From the sequence record NC_054928.1: a DNA stretch of 64,000 nt. The stretch is one strand, 5' to 3'. Under the pieces are notes generated by a model, which saw only the letters and a program-made list of their open reading frames with translations, made no database searches and was not told the origin of the DNA. This DNA comes from Escherichia phage vB_vPM_PD112. Numbering within the stretch: the stretch's first letter is position 1; each line of letters begins with the position of its first letter. Made by a program: the position numbers and the translations under genes. Of this stretch, positions 2,048 to 61,040 are shown in pieces.

Positions 2048-2070
2048 CGTTTTGTGAAAAAATTTTAAAA

Positions 2071-2100
2071 TAAAAAAAGGGAGAGCTTCGGCTCTCCCTA
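2071..2100 (-). terminator. intrinsic terminator (hairpin plus U-run)
   Basis: Minus strand GGGAGAGCCGAAGCUCUCCC followed by UUUUUUUAUUUU, just before the motA promoter. Confidence 0.7.
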
Positions 2101-5123: not shown

Positions 5124-5287
5124 TTTCTGTTCCTCCGTAGTTGATAGGGTAATAGTACCACGGAAGAACAGTCTTGTAAACAACTTTTTTTAAAAATATT
5201 CGTAATAAATGTGAATACCAACTACTACCGCTGAAACCTGTGCAACCCACCACGCACAAGCAATAAGTACAGAATTCAAAATTTTCA
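5117..5287 (-). CDS. small membrane protein, 56 aa, 3-prime end overlapping a promoter
   Basis: Hand-translated MKILNSVLIACAWWVAQVSAVVVGIHIYYEYFKK...; hydrophobic N-terminus; reading frame runs through promoter 5152-5180. Confidence 0.3.
5152..5180 (-). promoter_or_regulatory. T4-early-type promoter
   Basis: Minus strand TTTACA (plus 5175-5180), 17 nt, TACTAT (plus 5152-5157); followed by conserved leader and SD GGAGGA. Confidence 0.65.
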
Positions 5288-5661: not shown

Positions 5662-5690
5662 ATAGTACCACAGTCCTTGTGGTATGTAAA
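5662..5690 (-). promoter_or_regulatory. T4-early-type promoter
   Basis: Minus strand TTTACA (plus 5685-5690), 17 nt, TACTAT (plus 5662-5667); spacer has dyad CCACA..TGTGG. Confidence 0.7.
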
Positions 5691-6528: not shown

Positions 6529-6540
6529 AATTTTTCCTTA

Positions 6541-6560
6541 AAACAAAAGGGCCGAAGCCC
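6541..6560 (-). other. intercistronic hairpin with UUCG loop
   Basis: Minus strand GGGCUUCGGCCC followed by UUUUGUUUU, between ORF 6567-6761 and ORF 6199-6528. Confidence 0.6.
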
Positions 6561-6566
6561 TTTATT

Positions 6567-6761
6567 TTACTTGAATTGTGCAATTCTTTTCTCTAGACAT
6601 TCAGCATAAGATTTCATTGAGATAAACTGCGAAAGTAGCAGTTCTTGCTCAACTGCGCTAACTGTTAGAAACTTTGCGCTTTCTAAAAATTTGCTCAGTG
6701 CATTAATTTTGAGCATTAATTGATCGTATTCTTCTTTTACTCGTGCTTGATAACCTAACAT
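6567..6761 (-). CDS. hypothetical protein, 64 aa
   Basis: Track ORF, ATG start, directly downstream of rIIB. Confidence 0.5.
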   Translation of the reverse strand: MLGYQARVKEEYDQLMLKINALSKFLESAKFLTVSAVEQELLLSQFISMKSYAECLEKRIAQFK

Positions 6762-6793
6762 AATTTTCCTTAATGTAATAAGGGCCGAAGCCT

Positions 6794-7732
6794 TTATTTG
6801 AATTGTTCAGTAACGTCTTCAACTACTTCGTATTGGCAGGTACGCATTTTAGCATCGTTGTAATCAATCGGAATTGATACTACATCACGCGGATGTACTT
6901 TAACTTTTACAACTCGGCTGGTTGAACTGCCAAAGTGACGAATATAAGATTTAGAACACACATGCAGACCATGAGAACAAGTTTGTGTATCATCGTCATT
7001 CACACGAGTACGTGGCATTTTAACTACTTTACCCGGACTGTTATCAAAGGTGTTTGAGTGACAGTCAAAGTAATTGCTACGAACTACTTTCCAAGCATAG
7101 AAGTAACCATCTTCTGTAATTTCAATATCGTTTGCTACCAAGAAATCAAAGAGTCGAGATACCGCTTTTTGGCTTGGGTTTTCCAACAGATTTTCCAGGA
7201 ACGGAAAATAAAATTCAAAGTTTTCGCCTTTTTCCATCGAATCGAGAATACGATCAACTAAACCAGACCGCAATTCAATGTTTTGATAGAACAAGCTTCC
7301 ACCTTCAATTCGAACATCGCCGGAAATATATTTTTCAACAGCGCGACGAACATTAATTTTTTGTGCCGCTTCTTCCAACTTATCCGCTACAAGCAGATTA
7401 AGAATTTCCTGGAAGTTTGAATGAGTATTAGGAGTTGCGTTATAAGTTACACCGTCAACAGTAATTGAAATGAATTTTTTAGATGCATTCCAAATAATGT
7501 CAGATTTAGCAACTGGAGCAATAGCTACATCGCTCTTAACTTCAACTGTAATGTCACCGCTAATGGTAACTTTAGAGCGTTCAGCTTCTTCAGCATTTTT
7601 CAAAACACGACGGATTGTGTCAACCGATACACCTTGCCAATCAGCCAATTCCTGTTGGGTATAATTACCGCTTGAATACAGTTTGACAATTTCAGCTTGT
7701 TCGTTTTTGGTCAGGCATTTAATATTGTACAT
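6794..7732 (-). CDS. rIIB: rIIB protein
   Basis: 312 aa, the T4 rIIB length; immediately downstream of rIIA. Confidence 0.95.
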   Translation of the reverse strand: MYNIKCLTKNEQAEIVKLYSSGNYTQQELADWQGVSVDTIRRVLKNAEEAERSKVTISGDITVEVKSDVAIAPVAKSDIIWNASKKFISITVDGVTYNATPNTHSNFQEILNLLVADKLEEAAQKINVRRAVEKYISGDVRIEGGSLFYQNIELRSGLVDRILDSMEKGENFEFYFPFLENLLENPSQKAVSRLFDFLVANDIEITEDGYFYAWKVVRSNYFDCHSNTFDNSPGKVVKMPRTRVNDDDTQTCSHGLHVCSKSYIRHFGSSTSRVVKVKVHPRDVVSIPIDYNDAKMRTCQYEVVEDVTEQFK

Positions 7733-10160: not shown

Positions 10161-10190
10161 ATTATACCACATCCTTGTGGTAAAGTAAAC
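10161..10190 (-). promoter_or_regulatory. T4-early-type promoter
   Basis: Minus strand GTTTACT (plus 10184-10190), 17 nt, TATAAT (plus 10161-10166); -35 abuts the gene 60 stop codon. Confidence 0.75.
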
Positions 10191-10722
10191 TACTGGCTCA
10201 TCCATTCTTTACGAAGGTCAGCATTATCTCCCATGAGCATTTCAAAAAGCTCTTTCCAATTCTCAGGAAGTTTAACAACATCATATACTGGGTTTTGAAT
10301 CATCTCACGATATTCAGATTTTTCCAAAGAGCCAAGTCCCTTAATATAACGGATGCTATGTTTAGGTAGAGCATCTTTGGCACTCTCATATTCAGCGACT
10401 GTATAAAACCATTCTTGTTTTTTGCCGACCTGAGCGATGATTACAGGAGTTTTGACAAAGCGAATTCTTCCTTGTTCAAACAGTTCTGGCCAATTACTAA
10501 AAAATCCGAGCAGAGAAGGATAAATAGAACCTAATCCAATAATCTCTTAATTATGAGGTATTTCTATAGATAGCCCGAAGGCTATCCATCGTGATCTGCG
10601 TCTGTCATAATAGCGACATTCGCATAGTTCATTGAAGAGGATTTAATAGAACGACGAACATTGTTCTGCAATTTATATTTTTTCATATCAACGCTAGAAG
10701 AATCAATTTTTACAAATTTCAT
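10190..10722 (-). CDS. 60: DNA topoisomerase II subunit gp60, made by 50-nt translational bypass
   Basis: Codons 1-46 at 10722-10585 (MKFVKIDSS...TDADHDG), then UAG; decoding resumes at UUA 10534 (LGSIYPSLLGFFSNWPELFEQGRIRF...MSQ) to stop 10190-10192; 160 aa total as in T4. Confidence 0.95.
10535..10584 (-). other. gene 60 coding gap (ribosome bypass element)
   Basis: Take-off GGA 10585-10587, stop UAG 10582-10584, take-off hairpin UAGCCUUCGGGCUA, landing GGA 10535-10537. Confidence 0.9.
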
Positions 10723-13076: not shown

Positions 13077-13100
13077 ATTATACTCCAATAATCATAAAGC
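13077..13100 (-). promoter_or_regulatory. MotA-dependent middle promoter upstream of gene 39
   Basis: Minus strand MotA box GCTTTA (plus 13095-13100), 12 nt, TATAAT (plus 13077-13082). Confidence 0.65.
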
Positions 13101-13101
13101 T

Positions 13102-13120
13102 AAAGGCCCGAAGGCCTTTT
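13102..13120 (-). other. hairpin with UUCG loop over the stop codon of ORF 13119-13379
   Basis: Minus strand AAAGGCCUUCGGGCCUUU; sits directly upstream of the gene 39 middle promoter. Confidence 0.6.
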
Positions 13121-13379
13121 ATTTAAAACGAATAGTCGAATCCTTGAAGAATAGTCCAGAACATACTGTTCCTTCTACTTTCTGCCCGGTAGGTCCAATA
13201 GCACGAAATCCAGTATGTTGGAAATCATTTTCAGAGCAACCGAACCAATTATATCCAGTGATTTCAATATTAGTAAAACCACTTGAAGACAAAACTTTGG
13301 TTGCATTATCAGCATCAGTACATCCTACTAAAGATACTGCTAATACTAATGCTGCAATAGAACGATTAATATATTTCAT
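13119..13379 (-). CDS. small lipoprotein, 86 aa
   Basis: Signal peptide with lipobox LVGC (MKYINRSIAALVLAVSLVGCTD); ATG start. Confidence 0.6.
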   Translation of the reverse strand: MKYINRSIAALVLAVSLVGCTDADNATKVLSSSGFTNIEITGYNWFGCSENDFQHTGFRAIGPTGQKVEGTVCSGLFFKDSTIRFK

Positions 13380-13560: not shown

Positions 13561-13974
13561 TTATTCCTTAAAGTGAGCTTTCAACATCTGATACAAGGAC
13601 CATGCTTGTTCATTATTTTCAATAGTAACTTTCATTACCGGGAATTCAGATGGTTCAGTTACTGGTGCAGGGTCTTCCTGCTCTTCAGCTGCCTGGTATG
13701 GATTTTCAACTTCATCAAAGAATTCAGCTTCATTCGATGAAAGCCAAATAAAATCTTCATCCAAAATATCTTTACCGGAGGATAATGCCAATCTTCCAGT
13801 AGATGTCACAATTTTAGTAGGACGACCAAGATAGTCAATATCTATAACTTTAAAAGGTTCCATACCTAAACGTCGTGCATAAATTCCGTTTTCAGTATGA
13901 TATTTAATAAATTTTTCTTGAGCTTGTTTATTTTTAAATTGATACCATTTATTAACTTCAAATTTAATAGCCAT
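13561..13974 (-). CDS. hypothetical protein, about 137 aa (possibly goF by position)
   Basis: Track ORF starts on TTG; first ATG overlaps upstream stop (TAATG); name from T4 gene order only. Confidence 0.45.
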
Positions 13975-14189
13975 TAATAAATTTCCTTCCAATAAGTTGT
14001 GCCATTTTCAGTAATTTCACGAAATACACCATAAATTGGTTGTTTATCACCGACTTTCTCATACACATAAACAGAAGTCAAGTGAGTAAACTTGCTAGTA
14101 TGTTCCTTTTGAACTACTACCAAATTTGGATCAAATAATACATCTTCAAATTCATCATTAGTGCAATTCTGAACAATTTTACGTTTCAT
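13974..14189 (-). CDS. hypothetical protein, 71 aa (possibly cef by position and size)
   Basis: Track ORF, ATG start; name from T4 gene order only. Confidence 0.45.
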
Positions 14190-14360
14190 TACAATTTCCT
14201 CATTAATTGAACATTGGAGCGATGCGTTTCAGAAGAGTAGCAGCACCTTTGGCGAATTTTTCATTTTATTCTCCAAGTTGTTTTCTGTATCAGTAGTTGA
14301 TATTGATATAGTACCATAATCAACTACTGATGTATATAGTTTTATGAAAAATTTTAAACT

Positions 14361-14858
14361 TTATGCGCAGCGAGCGTTGCTGTAGTGTTTAATCCAACTT
14401 TCAGGAATGACTTTGTATGTTCCTAAAAATACCGCGTTGTATAGCTTAACGCCATCTTCTACCCACTGATCGGTAATGTATGCACACATAGCACGAGTAC
14501 GATGTTTTTGAACAACCCCTTCCTCATCTTCAGTAAATTCGAATTCATAAGGAGCAACGAACTTAATAGCCTGACCGAGTTTCCACTTAAAGTCTACACC
14601 TACATGCGAAGTATCAATCGTTTCAATTCCTTTAGCGGGAACAGCTTTCAAAAACGCAGACTCAAGAAATTTCGCACGAACATAGCCAAACTGAGGTTTA
14701 GACTTTCCATCTTTAGGAATGATACGCACTTTTACTTCAGAATCTTCATCTTTAACGCCATGTTTAAGCTGAATGCTTACAATTTCGACCAATTTTCCTG
14801 CTGCTTTAGAACGGGATTTATCAGATACACGAGCAATTTCACCAATATTAATAATCAT
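14361..14858 (-). CDS. motB: MotB-like protein
   Basis: 165 aa; position between cef-like ORF and dexA cluster; shares a C-terminal motif with the next ORF. Confidence 0.55.
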   Translation of the reverse strand: MIINIGEIARVSDKSRSKAAGKLVEIVSIQLKHGVKDEDSEVKVRIIPKDGKSKPQFGYVRAKFLESAFLKAVPAKGIETIDTSHVGVDFKWKLGQAIKFVAPYEFEFTEDEEGVVQKHRTRAMCAYITDQWVEDGVKLYNAVFLGTYKVIPESWIKHYSNARCA

Positions 14859-14902
14859 AGTTATCTCTCACTTGTTAAAAAGATTTTATACTCCACAGGA
14901 CC

Positions 14903-14931
14903 ATTATACTCTGGTCCCAAGAGTTTGTAAA
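14903..14931 (-). promoter_or_regulatory. T4-early-type promoter upstream of motB
   Basis: Minus strand TTTACA (plus 14926-14931), 17 nt, TATAAT (plus 14903-14908); spacer has dyad CTCTTGG..CCAGAG. Confidence 0.7.
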
Positions 14932-14934
14932 CTA

Positions 14935-15480
14935 TTAATTCAAAATAGCTACCACTGCACTACGAGGTACTACGCTAAAATCACCTGCATGAACAACATT
15001 CAGAAGTTCAACACCATCTTCAATCCACTGGTCTGTTACCCAACCACAGATAGGATTATCAAAAGGACGACGGATAGACACAGCAGCACACAACAGGTCT
15101 GTAGGGTCTTGCTCTTCAACTTCTTGGAACAGAATGAACTCTGCTTCATAAACCAGGATTTTCTCTATTTTGTTATTGTCTAAACGACGACCGTGGACAA
15201 TATAAGATTTAGTAAACCATTTACTTTTTTCAAAGTCTTCAACGGTAAATTCGCCTTCGCCAAAAACATCAGTCAAAGTTTTATGGCCGGAAATCAAGGC
15301 ATTAGTTTTAATTTCAGGTTCAACCAGTTTGTAGGTTTTGCCGATTTCAATAGCGATAGTCATAGTAGGTTCCTTAATTTCCAGTGGTTTAACAGGGCAT
15401 ACATAAGTGCTTACAACATCAAAATCAATCAGTTTAGCTACCGGATTTGGCGTGTATTCAGGATTATAATTAAATTTCAT
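14935..15480 (-). CDS. hypothetical protein, 181 aa, paralogue of the motB-like ORF
   Basis: C-terminus GWVTDQWIEDGVELLNVVHAGDFSVVP parallels AYITDQWVEDGVKLYNAVFLGTYKVIP in ORF 14361-14858. Confidence 0.55.
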   Translation of the reverse strand: MKFNYNPEYTPNPVAKLIDFDVVSTYVCPVKPLEIKEPTMTIAIEIGKTYKLVEPEIKTNALISGHKTLTDVFGEGEFTVEDFEKSKWFTKSYIVHGRRLDNNKIEKILVYEAEFILFQEVEEQDPTDLLCAAVSIRRPFDNPICGWVTDQWIEDGVELLNVVHAGDFSVVPRSAVVAILN

Positions 15481-27025: not shown

Positions 27026-27319
27026 TTACTCACCTACCACTTCAGCGATGATATTTTTATTATTGAAGTTTTTATCGCAATACAGAATATAATTATACTG
27101 CATTACACCACCAGACTTAAGCTGTTTTTGCACTTCAGCTTTCATTTCAGGACGATCACGCTTAACGATATTCATAATATCTGCTTCAATTTGAGTTTCA
27201 ACCTCAGTCTGATCTGCAGTCATAGACCATTCGCACAAATCTTTATCATAACCTGCCATAGCAGGCTGAGCAGCACAAGAAGCTAAAGCAAAAATTGCAG
27301 CAAAAACAAATTTTTTCAT
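27026..27319 (-). CDS. sp: periplasmic protein, probably Sp (spackle, superinfection exclusion)
   Basis: 97 aa with cleavable signal peptide MKKFVFAAIFALASCAAQPAMA; size and place in the 61-41 interval fit T4 Sp. Confidence 0.55.
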   Translation of the reverse strand: MKKFVFAAIFALASCAAQPAMAGYDKDLCEWSMTADQTEVETQIEADIMNIVKRDRPEMKAEVQKQLKSGGVMQYNYILYCDKNFNNKNIIAEVVGE

Positions 27320-28150: not shown

Positions 28151-28179
28151 ACTATACCATAGTCTTGTCAGCTTGTAAA
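28151..28179 (-). promoter_or_regulatory. T4-early-type promoter upstream of dmd
   Basis: Minus strand TTTACA (plus 28174-28179), 17 nt, TATAGT (plus 28151-28156); palindrome CAAGACT..AGTCTTG spans the -10. Confidence 0.65.
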
Positions 28180-34217: not shown

Positions 34218-34246
34218 ATAGTACCATGGAATAACAGGGATGTAAA
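34218..34246 (-). promoter_or_regulatory. T4-early-type promoter
   Basis: Minus strand TTTACA (plus 34241-34246), 17 nt, TACTAT (plus 34218-34223). Confidence 0.7.
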
Positions 34247-39034: not shown

Positions 39035-39069
39035 AATTTCCTCATTCAAGTTTTAGTGTAAATTATAAA

Positions 39070-39081
39070 GGGCCGAAGCCC
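39070..39081 (-). other. intercistronic UUCG hairpin between 45 and 44
   Basis: Minus strand GGGCUUCGGCCC; 4 nt past the gene 45 stop. Confidence 0.6.
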
Positions 39082-39085
39082 TTTA

Positions 39086-39772
39086 TTAAAAATCGTGGGT
39101 AGAATCAGCTTCAAGAGCTACCACATAATTCGCGTGTTCACCTTCAAATTTAGCAGCACCTTGTTTACCTTTTGCCCAGAGCAGAAGTTTATAATTTCCT
39201 GGTTGCATTTTCATATTTGCCATATTGATAATGAAATTAAATGTATTTTCACCATCATAATCGCCAAGAGTCAAAGAATATTTAACACGAGTCAAAGCAG
39301 AATCTTCTACTTTATTAAAACCGTTAATTACGATTTTACCTTCTTTTACCGTGATAGCAATTGTATCAATTTGCAGACCACGAGATACACGCAACAGTTG
39401 TTGAAGGTCTTCAGCTTTAATTTCAGTAACAACAGATGCTACCGGGAATGGAATTGGTTTATTAGGAGCAACTACTGTACTCGGATCGGCTGCTGGCCAA
39501 AAAATTGTTGAGCGAGCATCAGCAATTTTAATATTACCATCTTCTGACTGGGAAATTTCTGCATCATCATTAACTAGAGACAGAATACCGAGAAAACCGT
39601 TCAAATCGTAAATTGCTACATCAAAATCAATAACGTCAGAAATATTTGCTTCAGCATAAGTTGTACCATTAACTGCACGAGTCATAATAAATTGACCAGA
39701 TTTAAGCATAATACCGGAGTTAATAGTAGCGAAATTTTTCAAAATATTCAGTGTATCTTTAGACAGTTTCAT
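39086..39772 (-). CDS. 45: sliding clamp
   Basis: 228 aa, the T4 gp45 length; N-terminus MKLSKDTLNILKNFATINSGIML. Confidence 0.95.
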   Translation of the reverse strand: MKLSKDTLNILKNFATINSGIMLKSGQFIMTRAVNGTTYAEANISDVIDFDVAIYDLNGFLGILSLVNDDAEISQSEDGNIKIADARSTIFWPAADPSTVVAPNKPIPFPVASVVTEIKAEDLQQLLRVSRGLQIDTIAITVKEGKIVINGFNKVEDSALTRVKYSLTLGDYDGENTFNFIINMANMKMQPGNYKLLLWAKGKQGAAKFEGEHANYVVALEADSTHDF

Positions 39773-43751: not shown

Positions 43752-43775
43752 ATTATATCAAACTCCGTATAAAGC
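43752..43775 (-). promoter_or_regulatory. MotA-box middle promoter upstream of gene 47
   Basis: Minus strand GCTTTA (plus 43770-43775), 12 nt, TATAAT (plus 43752-43757). Confidence 0.6.
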
Positions 43776-43779
43776 TAAA

Positions 43780-43791
43780 GGGCCGAAGCCC
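43780..43791 (-). other. UUCG hairpin abutting the alpha-gt stop codon
   Basis: Minus strand GGGCUUCGGCCC directly after the stop at 43793-43795. Confidence 0.6.
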
Positions 43792-43792
43792 T

Positions 43793-44995
43793 TTATTTTG
43801 TAATAATGTCAAACTGCTCTTTAAAGCAGAAGCTTGAATCTTGGTGCTGATACAAAAATTCATAAGCTTTTTCGCGTTCACGGTCATAAAGAGCTCGGTC
43901 AGATGACAGTTCTTTAATACGTTCAAATGTTGATTCCATGTCATTTTCATCAAACCAAACGATACCGCTATCGTGCGAAATTAATGGAGTATTATCAACA
44001 CGGAATTTTAAATTTTCGCCAGTAGATTTCCAAAATACTGGAATTGTTCCACATGCACCAAGCTCGAGATGAGTATATTCTAAAGAACGCTGTAGATATT
44101 TTTTATCTAATTTACTCAGCTGATAACCAAATCCGGATTTACTCATGCGTTCAAGCATTTCGCTATTTACATAACGGTCGAGAATTTGCGTCGGCAAATT
44201 AGGAGCAATTTTAATTTGGTCTACTTGATGAAGACGATAATACTCGTATGGAATTCCTTTTTCTTTAATAGGAATGAAAGCTGGAGAACGTTCCAGACCT
44301 TCCATAATAGTACTTAGTCCTGCAGGTTTAAGATGTTTTTCGTGAAAATCAAACATCTGATAAAAGCCTTTCCATGTAGTAGTACGACCAATCCAACGGT
44401 TGATATTCATGTTAATTTCAGAAACATCTTTCCAGTAGGTTGATCGAACCTTCGCAATATCCATAGGAGGCTGAAAGTTATATACGGTCGGTGCTTCTTC
44501 AATATCATCAAACAGAGAAACAGTTTCCGGATACCATTCTTTCATCAAAACTTTATTAAAGTCACCATTATCAGAATGGCTAAAAATAACATCAGCTCGA
44601 CGAACAGTTTCTTCTAATCCCAAATTTCGGCGTAAAGAAAGAGAAGAATGGTCATGCTGATAAACTACAACACGAACCGAAGGTTTAATGTTATCAATAA
44701 TTTTTTTATAGTTATTAATAGTGTCTTCTTCTACTGAAGTAGCAGGAACTGAATTGATAATTAGAATATCACAATCATTTACCAACTTAAGTGTTTTATC
44801 GTATTCTTTTGCCAATAAAACCGGAATTGAAAATGACTTATAATCATGCGCGCAATTACGAGTAAATGATTTATCTTTAGCATAAACCAAAGTTACTTCA
44901 TGACCATTTTTAATAAACCAATCACGCTGCTCAAGAGAAAATTTAGTTACACCGCAACCTTCAAGACCTCGAGCCATAAAAATACATGCTTTCAT
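43793..44995 (-). CDS. agt: alpha-glucosyltransferase
   Basis: 400 aa, the T4 alpha-gt length; N-terminus ...CIFMARGLEGCGVTKF. Confidence 0.9.
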   Translation of the reverse strand: MKACIFMARGLEGCGVTKFSLEQRDWFIKNGHEVTLVYAKDKSFTRNCAHDYKSFSIPVLLAKEYDKTLKLVNDCDILIINSVPATSVEEDTINNYKKIIDNIKPSVRVVVYQHDHSSLSLRRNLGLEETVRRADVIFSHSDNGDFNKVLMKEWYPETVSLFDDIEEAPTVYNFQPPMDIAKVRSTYWKDVSEINMNINRWIGRTTTWKGFYQMFDFHEKHLKPAGLSTIMEGLERSPAFIPIKEKGIPYEYYRLHQVDQIKIAPNLPTQILDRYVNSEMLERMSKSGFGYQLSKLDKKYLQRSLEYTHLELGACGTIPVFWKSTGENLKFRVDNTPLISHDSGIVWFDENDMESTFERIKELSSDRALYDREREKAYEFLYQHQDSSFCFKEQFDIITK

Positions 44996-47378: not shown

Positions 47379-47410
47379 ACATTATCCTCAATTGCGTTAA
47401 AATTTTATTA

Positions 47411-47430
47411 TCCAAAAAGGGCCGAAGCCC
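47411..47430 (-). terminator. UUCG hairpin with U-run (terminator-like)
   Basis: Minus strand GGGCUUCGGCCC followed by UUUUUGG, directly after the stop of ORF 47431-47631. Confidence 0.55.
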
Positions 47431-47631
47431 TTAGCTAAACTGTTTGGCGCCCTTCCAGCCTTCGTACATCATTGCGGCTGATATTAATATTGCCCCTGAA
47501 CAGCTTGAATATTTGTGATTCCAAAACCAGTTCAGAAAAACTTCGTCATCAATACCTTGGGCTATCATATTTTCAAAGAACTGACGACGAGCTTCGGCAA
47601 TTCGTTGCGATAATTTAGATTCAGGATTCAT
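47431..47631 (-). CDS. hypothetical protein, 66 aa
   Basis: Track ORF, ATG start. Confidence 0.5.
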   Translation of the reverse strand: MNPESKLSQRIAEARRQFFENMIAQGIDDEVFLNWFWNHKYSSCSGAILISAAMMYEGWKGAKQFS

Positions 47632-56072: not shown

Positions 56073-56101
56073 ATTATACCACATCCTTGCGGCAAAGTAA
56101 A
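56073..56101 (-). promoter_or_regulatory. T4-early-type promoter, near-copy of the one at 10161-10190
   Basis: Minus strand TTTACT (plus 56096-56101), 17 nt, TATAAT (plus 56073-56078); 28 of 30 nt identical to 10161-10190. Confidence 0.7.
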
Positions 56102-60482: not shown

Positions 60483-60511
60483 ATAGTATCACACTACTAC
60501 CCTGCTGTAAA
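60483..60511 (-). promoter_or_regulatory. T4-early-type promoter
   Basis: Minus strand TTTACA (plus 60506-60511), 17 nt, TACTAT (plus 60483-60488). Confidence 0.65.
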
Positions 60512-60999: not shown

Positions 61000-61040
61000 T
61001 GAAAAATTTTTGAAATAAAAAAGGGAGCCCGAAGGCTCCC
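61000..61040 (-). terminator. intrinsic terminator
   Basis: Minus strand GGGAGCCUUCGGGCUCCC followed by UUUUUUAUUUC, just past the stop of ORF 61043-62056. Confidence 0.7.

Follow-up and report, generated by a model that had tools for sequence, protein, structure and literature searches.

The window (the whole 64-kb stretch of DNA that was analyzed) belongs to a T4-like phage of the genus Tequatrovirus whose early genes are encoded on the minus strand. The minus-strand gene order is that of T4, including gp39, 39.1/39.2, goF, cef, motB, two motB paralogs, and dexA, and the inverted repeat described here sits inside the 171-nt intergenic region between cef and motB. A 1-kb segment around the repeat is 99.9% identical to Escherichia phage vB_EcoM_CE1 and 93 to 98% identical to hundreds of Tequatrovirus genomes. 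The sequence of the repeat region is the same in T4 as in the window, and phage PST and the window are identical across the repeat. The upstream cistron, motB, occupies positions 14361 to 14858 of the minus strand, with its stop codon at 14361 to 14363, and is served by an early promoter at 14903 to 14931 (minus strand; TTTACA-17-TATAAT) that has a -10-bracketing hairpin of its own (-17.4 kcal/mol). A GGAG motif distinct from the motB SD lies in the 3' arm of that hairpin, at 14890 to 14900 on the minus strand (+3 to +6), and could be a candidate RegB cleavage motif that is exposed or hidden according to the transcript start.

On the other side of the repeat, cef (13974 to 14189, minus strand) is the first intact cistron downstream of the promoter in the intergenic region, referred to here as the focal promoter. 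T2-type relatives carry an 89-amino-acid open reading frame (ORF) between this promoter and cef (T2 locus, positions 419 to 688); the ORF belongs to phrog_3720, a PHROG family of unknown function, and a search of it for a Pfam domain found none. In the window phage and in T4, a deletion of about 210 bp has occurred at a short AAAA(T/C)T repeat, leaving an out-of-frame, 11-codon remnant of the 89-amino-acid gene at 14229 to 14274 (minus strand) in which the SD (GGAG, 14274 to 14271) and the ATG (14264) are intact and the stop codon is at 14229. The deletion end points lie inside the ORF and outside the promoter and the stem-loop, which are placed between the motB stop codon and the SD and ATG of the remnant.

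The predicted early promoter

Read along the minus strand, the layout is an A/T-rich stretch, TATACA, 17 nt, TGG TACTAT, ATCAAT, and ATCAACTACTGATACAG. The A/T-rich stretch, AGTTTAAAATTTTTCATAAAACTA (14337 to 14360), resembles an UP element, lies between the motB stop codon and the -35 hexamer, and was aligned with seven paralogous promoters. The -35 hexamer TATACA (14331 to 14336; family consensus, TTTACA) is separated by a 17-nt spacer from the -10 hexamer TACTAT (14308 to 14313), which is preceded by TGG and is therefore of the extended -10 type. Together these elements belong to a conserved block of 76 nt that is present in eight copies, as judged from the alignment with seven paralogous early promoters in the window. 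The copy at position 2046 is the T4 motA early promoter, for which the annotation in GenBank record Z48569 gives GGTTTAC as the -35 element and TACTAT as the -10 element, with a leader that starts ATCAACTACTGATACAG. The same elements recur in another annotated T4 promoter, near ndd. The focal copy departs from the family in its -35 hexamer and in the 6 nt past the -10 hexamer; TATACA is also found in the orthologous promoter of Dhakavirus Bp7.

The promoter call is based on this homology to the T4 early family and not on a simple promoter scan; such a scan, using the Escherichia coli consensus, misses the focal promoter, which matches at 8 of 12 positions. By its homology with the motA promoter, the focal element is probably an active early promoter. 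A count of 7 nt from the -10 hexamer places the predicted start site at the A in position 14301, exactly where the 3' arm of the repeat begins. A literature search for a T4 5'- or 3'-end transcriptome paper returned none.

The preliminary description of this DNA had taken the left arm of the repeat to be the conserved early leader and the right arm to be an extra, inverted copy peculiar to this locus, and both points are borne out. On the minus strand, ATCAACTACTG occurs exactly at the start of the focal leader, and the leaders of two other promoters, 2046 and 34246, open with it as well; copies with a single mismatch are found at 5180, 59069, and 27376. On the plus strand, the right arm at 14319 to 14329 is the sole exact copy.

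The inverted repeat: fold, transcripts, and conservation

The repeat was initially described as 11 bp long, with cagtagttgat at 14291 to 14301 and atcaactactg at 14319 to 14329. Both sequences are found at these positions and the repeat is real, but it is larger than was claimed. The perfect arms are 13 bp in length, ATCAGTAGTTGAT at 14289 to 14301 and ATCAACTACTGAT at 14319 to 14331 in the plus-strand reading, with 17 nt between them, and with three mismatches they extend to 20 nt (14289 to 14308 and 14312 to 14331; 85% complementary) around a 3-nt center. The arms are 30 bp apart, center to center, and are symmetric about the -10 hexamer. The center of the dyad (14309 to 14311) falls within TACTAT (14313 to 14308 on the minus strand), so that the repeat does bracket the -10 region of an early promoter, as had been proposed. 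No other inverted repeat in the 64-kb window has perfect arms of 13 bp or more and a loop of at most 25 nt; windows simulated with a first-order Markov model contained a mean of 0.1 such repeats and a maximum of 2.

In the direction of transcription, the 5' arm (ATCAGTAGTTGAT; 14319 to 14331, minus strand) covers positions -30 to -18, comprising the last base of the -35 hexamer and most of the spacer, and the 3' arm (ATCAACTACTGAT; 14289 to 14301, minus strand) covers predicted positions +1 to +13 and is identical to the leader start of the motA-type early promoter family. The apical part between them (14302 to 14318, minus strand) holds the -10 hexamer. The RNA hairpin consists of a 13-bp stem, a 2x2 internal loop, a 5-bp stem formed by UGGUA (14316 to 14312) and UAUCA (14308 to 14304) with one G.U pair, and a CUA loop (14311 to 14309). 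The stem is AT-rich, with G-C at 4 of the 13 outer pairs.

Secondary structure prediction for both RNA and DNA, which had been suggested in the preliminary description, gave folds beyond those of shuffled sequences in both cases. The RNA of a 51-nt segment folds at -20.2 kcal/mol compared with -6.6 +/- 2.6 kcal/mol for shuffles (z = -5.3; 0 of 200 shuffles as good), and the single-stranded DNA of the repeat folds at -11.5 kcal/mol (z = -5.1). When only the spacer of the focal promoter was shuffled, z was -6.3. The arms are perfectly symmetric, and the sense and antisense hairpins fold at -20.2 and -18.0 kcal/mol, respectively. Rfam covariance models searched against positions 13900 to 15100 gave no match with an E value of 1 or lower.

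The possibility of a hairpin in the transcript, also raised at the outset, holds for one class of RNA and fails for another. Because the 5' arm (-30 to -18) lies upstream of the predicted +1, the promoter's own transcript would be without the hairpin, and since this arm is in the -35/-10 spacer, the hairpin could form only in RNA that arrives from upstream. The motB promoter (14931 to 14903) is located 570 nt upstream of the focal element on the same strand, and a terminator scan found no terminator-like sites between the two; read-through RNA from the motB promoter probably crosses the stem-loop. In folds of the read-through RNA the hairpin is an isolated domain, and the promoter's own RNA has structure no greater than that of shuffles.

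Two simple functions were considered for the hairpin and rejected. It is not an intrinsic terminator on either strand, having an AT-rich stem and no U-run and being absent from the terminator scan; the 8 nt past the hairpin are ACAGAAAA, with 0 U. Masking of a ribosome-binding site at the focal locus was rejected as well, the SD being 14 nt past the stem and the folds of the read-through RNA and the promoter's own RNA differing by the hairpin alone.

Conservation was counted in the phage GenBank collection. Of 496 Tequatrovirus records, 432 have the 55-nt core (14283 to 14337) with 100% identity, whereas the adjoining 55 nt, comprising the UP region and the 3' end of motB, is identical in only 8 records and the core of the hairpin-free sister promoter at 34246 is identical in 0 records. 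Six records with mismatches were sampled for stem variants, and these contained three distinct changes in the stem. An A-to-G change in SholemSchwarzbard and SsoM113 and a second A-to-G change in Lv5cm each keep a G.U pair in the sense RNA, and the RB18 variant has the penultimate stem pair broken. The near-invariance of the core leaves little covariation signal within Tequatrovirus, and a scan of IMG/VR using flank-anchored patterns yielded two loci, too few for covariation.

Stem-loops at other early promoters and in other genera

Shorter dyads in other promoter spacers, at 28151 to 28175 and 14909 to 14925, had earlier been taken as a hint of a shared feature. These are real hairpins around the -10 region (-18.9 and -17.4 kcal/mol, respectively), and the feature is indeed shared, at frequencies far above those of swap controls. 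In a curated set of 17 early promoters from the window, folded from -35 to +32, 8 contained a hairpin (-16 to -24 kcal/mol) that pairs the spacer with the sequence directly past the -10 hexamer; swapping the downstream halves within the set gave a mean of 2.1 hairpins and a maximum of 6 (5,000 permutations). An objective scan of the window together with T4 55.5 to 80.5 kb and T4 112 to 161.5 kb returned 35 candidate early promoters. A hairpin of -15 kcal/mol or stronger, reaching -24 kcal/mol, was present in 17 of these, compared with a swap mean of 2.7 and a maximum of 8 (10,000 permutations). The sister hairpin promoters in the window have their -35 starts at 60511, 59069, 28179, 27691, 21001, 16039, 14931, and 5180, all on the minus strand, and those in T4 (AF158101) have theirs at 73938, 65798, 62796, 57989, 146142, 136335, 133330, and 123092.

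Of the 17 hairpins, 16 fold more stably on the sense than on the antisense strand (P = 0.0003). The sister stems contain 17 G.U pairs and 0 A.C mismatches, with G+T content equal between the strands, a count that is biased because folding programs extend stems through G.U and stop at A.C. Where the window and T4 differ in two sister stems, every change exchanges C and U opposite G, and the same holds for both differences between the paralogs 5180 and 59069. Across promoters, the center of the dyad ranges from about -14 to -4 relative to the start.

A U-run past the hairpin was found in 0 of the 17 embedded hairpins. Canonical terminators, defined as GC-rich hairpins with a U-run within 130 nt upstream, precede six of the early promoters (window 2058 to 2094, window 61002 to 61038, window upstream of 48298 and of 34246, and T4 146874 and 130309). 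None of these six has an embedded hairpin, compared with 17 of the 29 promoters that lack an upstream terminator (Fisher two-sided P = 0.019), and it looks as if embedded hairpins and canonical upstream terminators substitute for each other. The window also contains a six-copy GGGCCGAAGCCC hairpin family flanked by A-runs and T-runs (6532 to 6573, 6764 to 6805, 13088 to 13129, 39053 to 39094, 43763 to 43804, and 47402 to 47443), the members of which look like bidirectional intrinsic terminators.

In 7 of the 17 hairpin promoters, the focal one not among them, the whole of a real SD is paired within the 3' arm. The seven promoters are window 59069 to 59009, 5180 to 5120, 16039 to 15980 (motB.2 homologue), and 21001 to 20940 and T4 62796 (regB), 136335, and 123092, and in each case the anti-SD is carried by the spacer. 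On the predicted folds, read-through RNA of these SD-masking sisters should be translationally masked and RNA from their own promoters should be free.

Spacers also differ between phages at the same promoter. The promoter at 34218 to 34246 has the spacer TCCCTGTTATTCC in the window and AGACTGTTCTTCC in T4 (about 27090 to 27119), and the T4 version is the anti-SD spacer of the 5180/59069 family; judged from these sequences, spacer modules have evidently been exchanged between paralogous promoters. A small CCACA-agga-TGTGG hairpin located wholly within the spacer, which makes use of the TGTGG preceding the -10 hexamer, occurs in the window at 5662 to 5690, 56073 to 56101, and 10161 to 10192 and also in Jiaodavirus KpV477.

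The motB-cef spacer was examined in nine further genera, and in eight of the nine it contains an early promoter with a stem-loop over or around the -10 region that is built from unrelated arms. The arms are TTGGTGTAGGAG and CTCCTACACCAA in Winklervirus, where the -10 hexamer is in the loop as in the window, TGGTAGAAGAC and GTCTTCTACCA in Mosugukvirus, GGTAGGAGCAT and ATGTTCCTACC in Marfavirus, and GGTCTAT and ATAGACC in Mosigvirus. Karamvirus and Moonvirus have AGGGCTAT and ATAGCCCT, which show a compensatory T:A-to-G:C change relative to Mosigvirus. Dhakavirus has AGGGTAGTA and TAC(TAT)TACCCT, and Jiaodavirus has CCACA and TGTGG, inside the spacer. The Gaprivervirus hairpin, with arms GATAGGGT and GCCCTATC, is found without a recognizable -35 or -10 hexamer, and here the stem-loop seems to have outlived the promoter. 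Because the hairpins of other genera have unrelated arms, structure is conserved at this locus while sequence is not. The intergenic RNA folds with a z score of -2.9 or lower in 8 of the 10 genera, and the sense strand folds better in 6 of 10, which is not significant. The motB-cef spacer of Gaprivervirus EAWsc9 is only about 50 nt in length and contains the hairpin GATAGGGTttttGCCCTATC (locus positions 236 to 285).

Comparison with known systems and possible roles

Stem-loops associated with early promoters have been described in phages RB49 and phi1 as PeSLs (promoter-early stem-loops), in which the stem-loop is mostly between -35 and -10 or overlaps the -10 box (Arbiol et al. 2010, PMC2839356). 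One PeSL stem-loop cut downstream lacZ expression as strongly as rrnB T1, and AT-rich stem-loops on T4 early promoters were put forward as T-even analogues (PMC2839356). PeSL positions fall into five subclasses, one of which overlaps the -10 region (PMC2839356; PMC4122927). PeSLs have been extended to the PST/T4 pair, for which, according to a figure legend, the stem-loops directly precede the promoter and do not cover the -10 region (Comeau et al. 2014, PMC4122927). The focal element resembles PeSLs in having a sigma-70-type early promoter, an AT-rich upstream region, and a stem-loop built into the promoter and in being intergenic from a stop codon to the next SD/ATG. PeSLs are also repeated through their genomes and linked to gains, losses, and replacements of ORFs among related phages. 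Here the promoter family recurs (8 window copies) and the ORF directly past the promoter is present in some relatives and absent from others, but the deletion junction is inside that ORF and not in the cassette. The focal element differs from PeSLs in its AT-rich stem of unusual length (13 + 5 bp), which is not of the G(n)-loop-C(n) kind, and in its 3' arm, which is the conserved transcript leader itself. By analogy, the focal element matches the PeSL subclass whose stem-loop overlaps -10, with terminator or attenuator action as a prediction only. The attenuation seen with a G/C-rich RB49 stem-loop may not transfer, because the focal stem is AT-rich and the next 8 nt have no U.

A second point of comparison is T4 genes e, soc, 49, and I-TevI, whose inhibitory hairpins enclose a promoter (reviewed in PMC3014915). 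As in those genes, the 5' strand of the focal hairpin is upstream of an internal start, and long transcripts would fold and local ones would not. Their promoters are late (or middle), however, and have the SD and/or AUG in the 3' strand, whereas the focal promoter is early and its SD is 14 nt past the stem; the masking pattern is instead displayed by the seven sister early promoters. Intrinsic terminators, such as the GGGCCGAAGCCC-T-run family of the window, also place a hairpin after a gene and are mutually exclusive with embedded hairpins, but they differ from the focal hairpin, which is without a U-run and has an AT-rich stem. Intercistronic hairpins such as REP elements and the malE-malF stem-loop are expected to block 3'-to-5' exonucleases, stabilizing the upstream cistron relative to the downstream one. 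The focal hairpin is like these in its stability, in following a stop codon inside an operon, and in having no U-run; it differs in being no dispersed REP sequence and in overlapping a promoter.

With modest confidence, we favor the reading in which the repeat is the stem-loop of a PeSL-type cassette that acts in RNA as intercistronic punctuation of motB read-through transcripts. The stem-loop would exist only in polycistronic RNA entering from motB, and transcripts from the embedded promoter, starting with the first base of the 3' arm, would remain unstructured. With its 18 bp and -20 kcal/mol, the hairpin may serve as a barrier that defines or stabilizes the 3' end of the motB message, and/or it may attenuate RNA continuing into the downstream cistron; in either case it would substitute for the canonical GC-rich terminator that is found just upstream of other copies of the promoter family. 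The -10 hexamer would lie in the loop because the spacer and the leader start are the sole unconstrained sequence available for the arms. A cis-acting role in RNA is argued for by the geometry, the strand bias, the substitutions that preserve pairing, the promoter-less Gaprivervirus hairpin, and the mutual exclusion with terminators, where the strand argument rests mainly on the sister promoters since the focal arms are symmetric and the genera stand at 6 of 10. As the hairpin lacks terminator features and covers no ribosome-binding site, we infer that a 3'-end barrier or an attenuator is its most likely effect on RNA.

The palindrome could alternatively work in DNA, either as a cruciform that occludes or pre-melts the -10 region or as the operator of a dimeric protein that switches the promoter off. 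Its arms are perfect and symmetric about the -10 hexamer, the single-stranded DNA fold is stable (-11.5 kcal/mol; z = -5.1), the entire 55 nt are invariant with the loop included, and the shut-off of T4 early promoters is incompletely understood (PMC3014915). Against an operator, the arms differ at all 17 hairpin promoters and in all 10 genera, without a common half-site. The G.U pairs of the sister hairpins would be G.T mismatches in DNA, and these hairpins fold better as sense strand in 16 of 17 cases; the position of the dyad center is variable (about -14 to -4), and the Gaprivervirus hairpin persists without a promoter. Cruciform extrusion is further disfavored by the 17-nt loop or by the need to unpair 43 bp. 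The G.U pairs and strand bias of the sister hairpins thus favor RNA over a cruciform or a palindromic site for a protein, leaving the earlier suggestion of -10 occlusion in DNA unsupported, and we regard DNA-level control as quite unlikely. Autoregulation by the T2-type 89-amino-acid ORF through an operator is unlikely too, the ORF being without a Pfam domain and deleted here and in T4, where the repeat is still perfect. It is also conceivable, if unlikely, that the repeat is a neutral by-product, in which a template switch (quasi-palindrome correction) or gene conversion copied the leader inverted into the spacer and the result then hitchhiked. The 5' arm exactly matches, in inverted orientation, a leader common to several paralogous promoters, spacers have been swapped between such promoters (T4 versus the window at 34246), and Tequatroviruses, a young and recombining genus, are only about 3 to 7% divergent here. 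Such a templated duplication explains the origin of the 5' arm, but not its selective conservation or the parallel structures of other genera: the core is identical in 432 records compared with 8 for the adjoining sequence and none for the sister core, stem substitutions keep pairing, independent stem-loops with other arms occupy the same locus in nine other genera, and the genome-wide excess over swap controls is large.

Two further rival explanations give the hairpin another function. As a recombination element, it would be the target or hot spot of PeSL-mediated modular shuffling of small ORFs, a role that would suit the adjacent downstream 89-amino-acid ORF, present in T2-type relatives and deleted in T4 and the window phage, and that has a precedent in a mini-circle crossover mapped to the loop of a stem-loop (Arbiol et al., PMC2839356). 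The deletion end points are inside the ORF at AAAA(T/C)T, however, and not at the promoter or stem-loop, and arms that vary between promoters supply no homology, which makes this role very unlikely. Translational gating of the gene e/soc/49/I-TevI type at the focal locus is the least probable of the explanations and scarcely to be expected. A promoter inside a hairpin with its 5' arm upstream of the start is the gene e arrangement, and seven sister promoters do pair a real SD in the 3' arm, but the focal 3' arm ends at +13, while the T2-type ORF and its remnant have their SD at +28 to +31 and their AUG at +38. The SD of cef lies over 100 nt away, and the minimum-energy fold of the whole intergenic RNA leaves the SD and AUG sites outside the hairpin.

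PeSLs are a kind of element that has already been described, and the focal element is best read as an unusually long and strongly conserved further member. For the focal locus, the result is a modest one, namely, that a palindrome over a -10 region is read as half of a promoter/stem-loop cassette and not as an operator or cruciform switch. The genome-wide hairpin pattern is a more interesting lead. The survey offers quantitative evidence for selection on the stem-loops, in the form of the excess over swap controls, the ten genera with unrelated arms, the mostly sense-strand folding, and the replacement of terminators, and it splits them into two subclasses, those that mask a ribosome-binding site in read-through RNA (regB and motB.2) and those that do not (the focal element). 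A tentative and rather doubtful extension is that T-even phages have a genome-wide "promoter-of-origin" code, in which the hairpin makes the RNA of a cistron read differently, with respect to translation, RegB/RNase access, and decay, according to where the transcript started. If true, such a code would extend the late-promoter paradigm of gene e and I-TevI to early promoters and would amount to a cis-encoded confinement of translation to the first minutes of infection, with a bearing on early shut-off. The PeSL notion, so far a descriptive one, now bears on the way in which closely packed early cistrons of T4 are insulated from each other.
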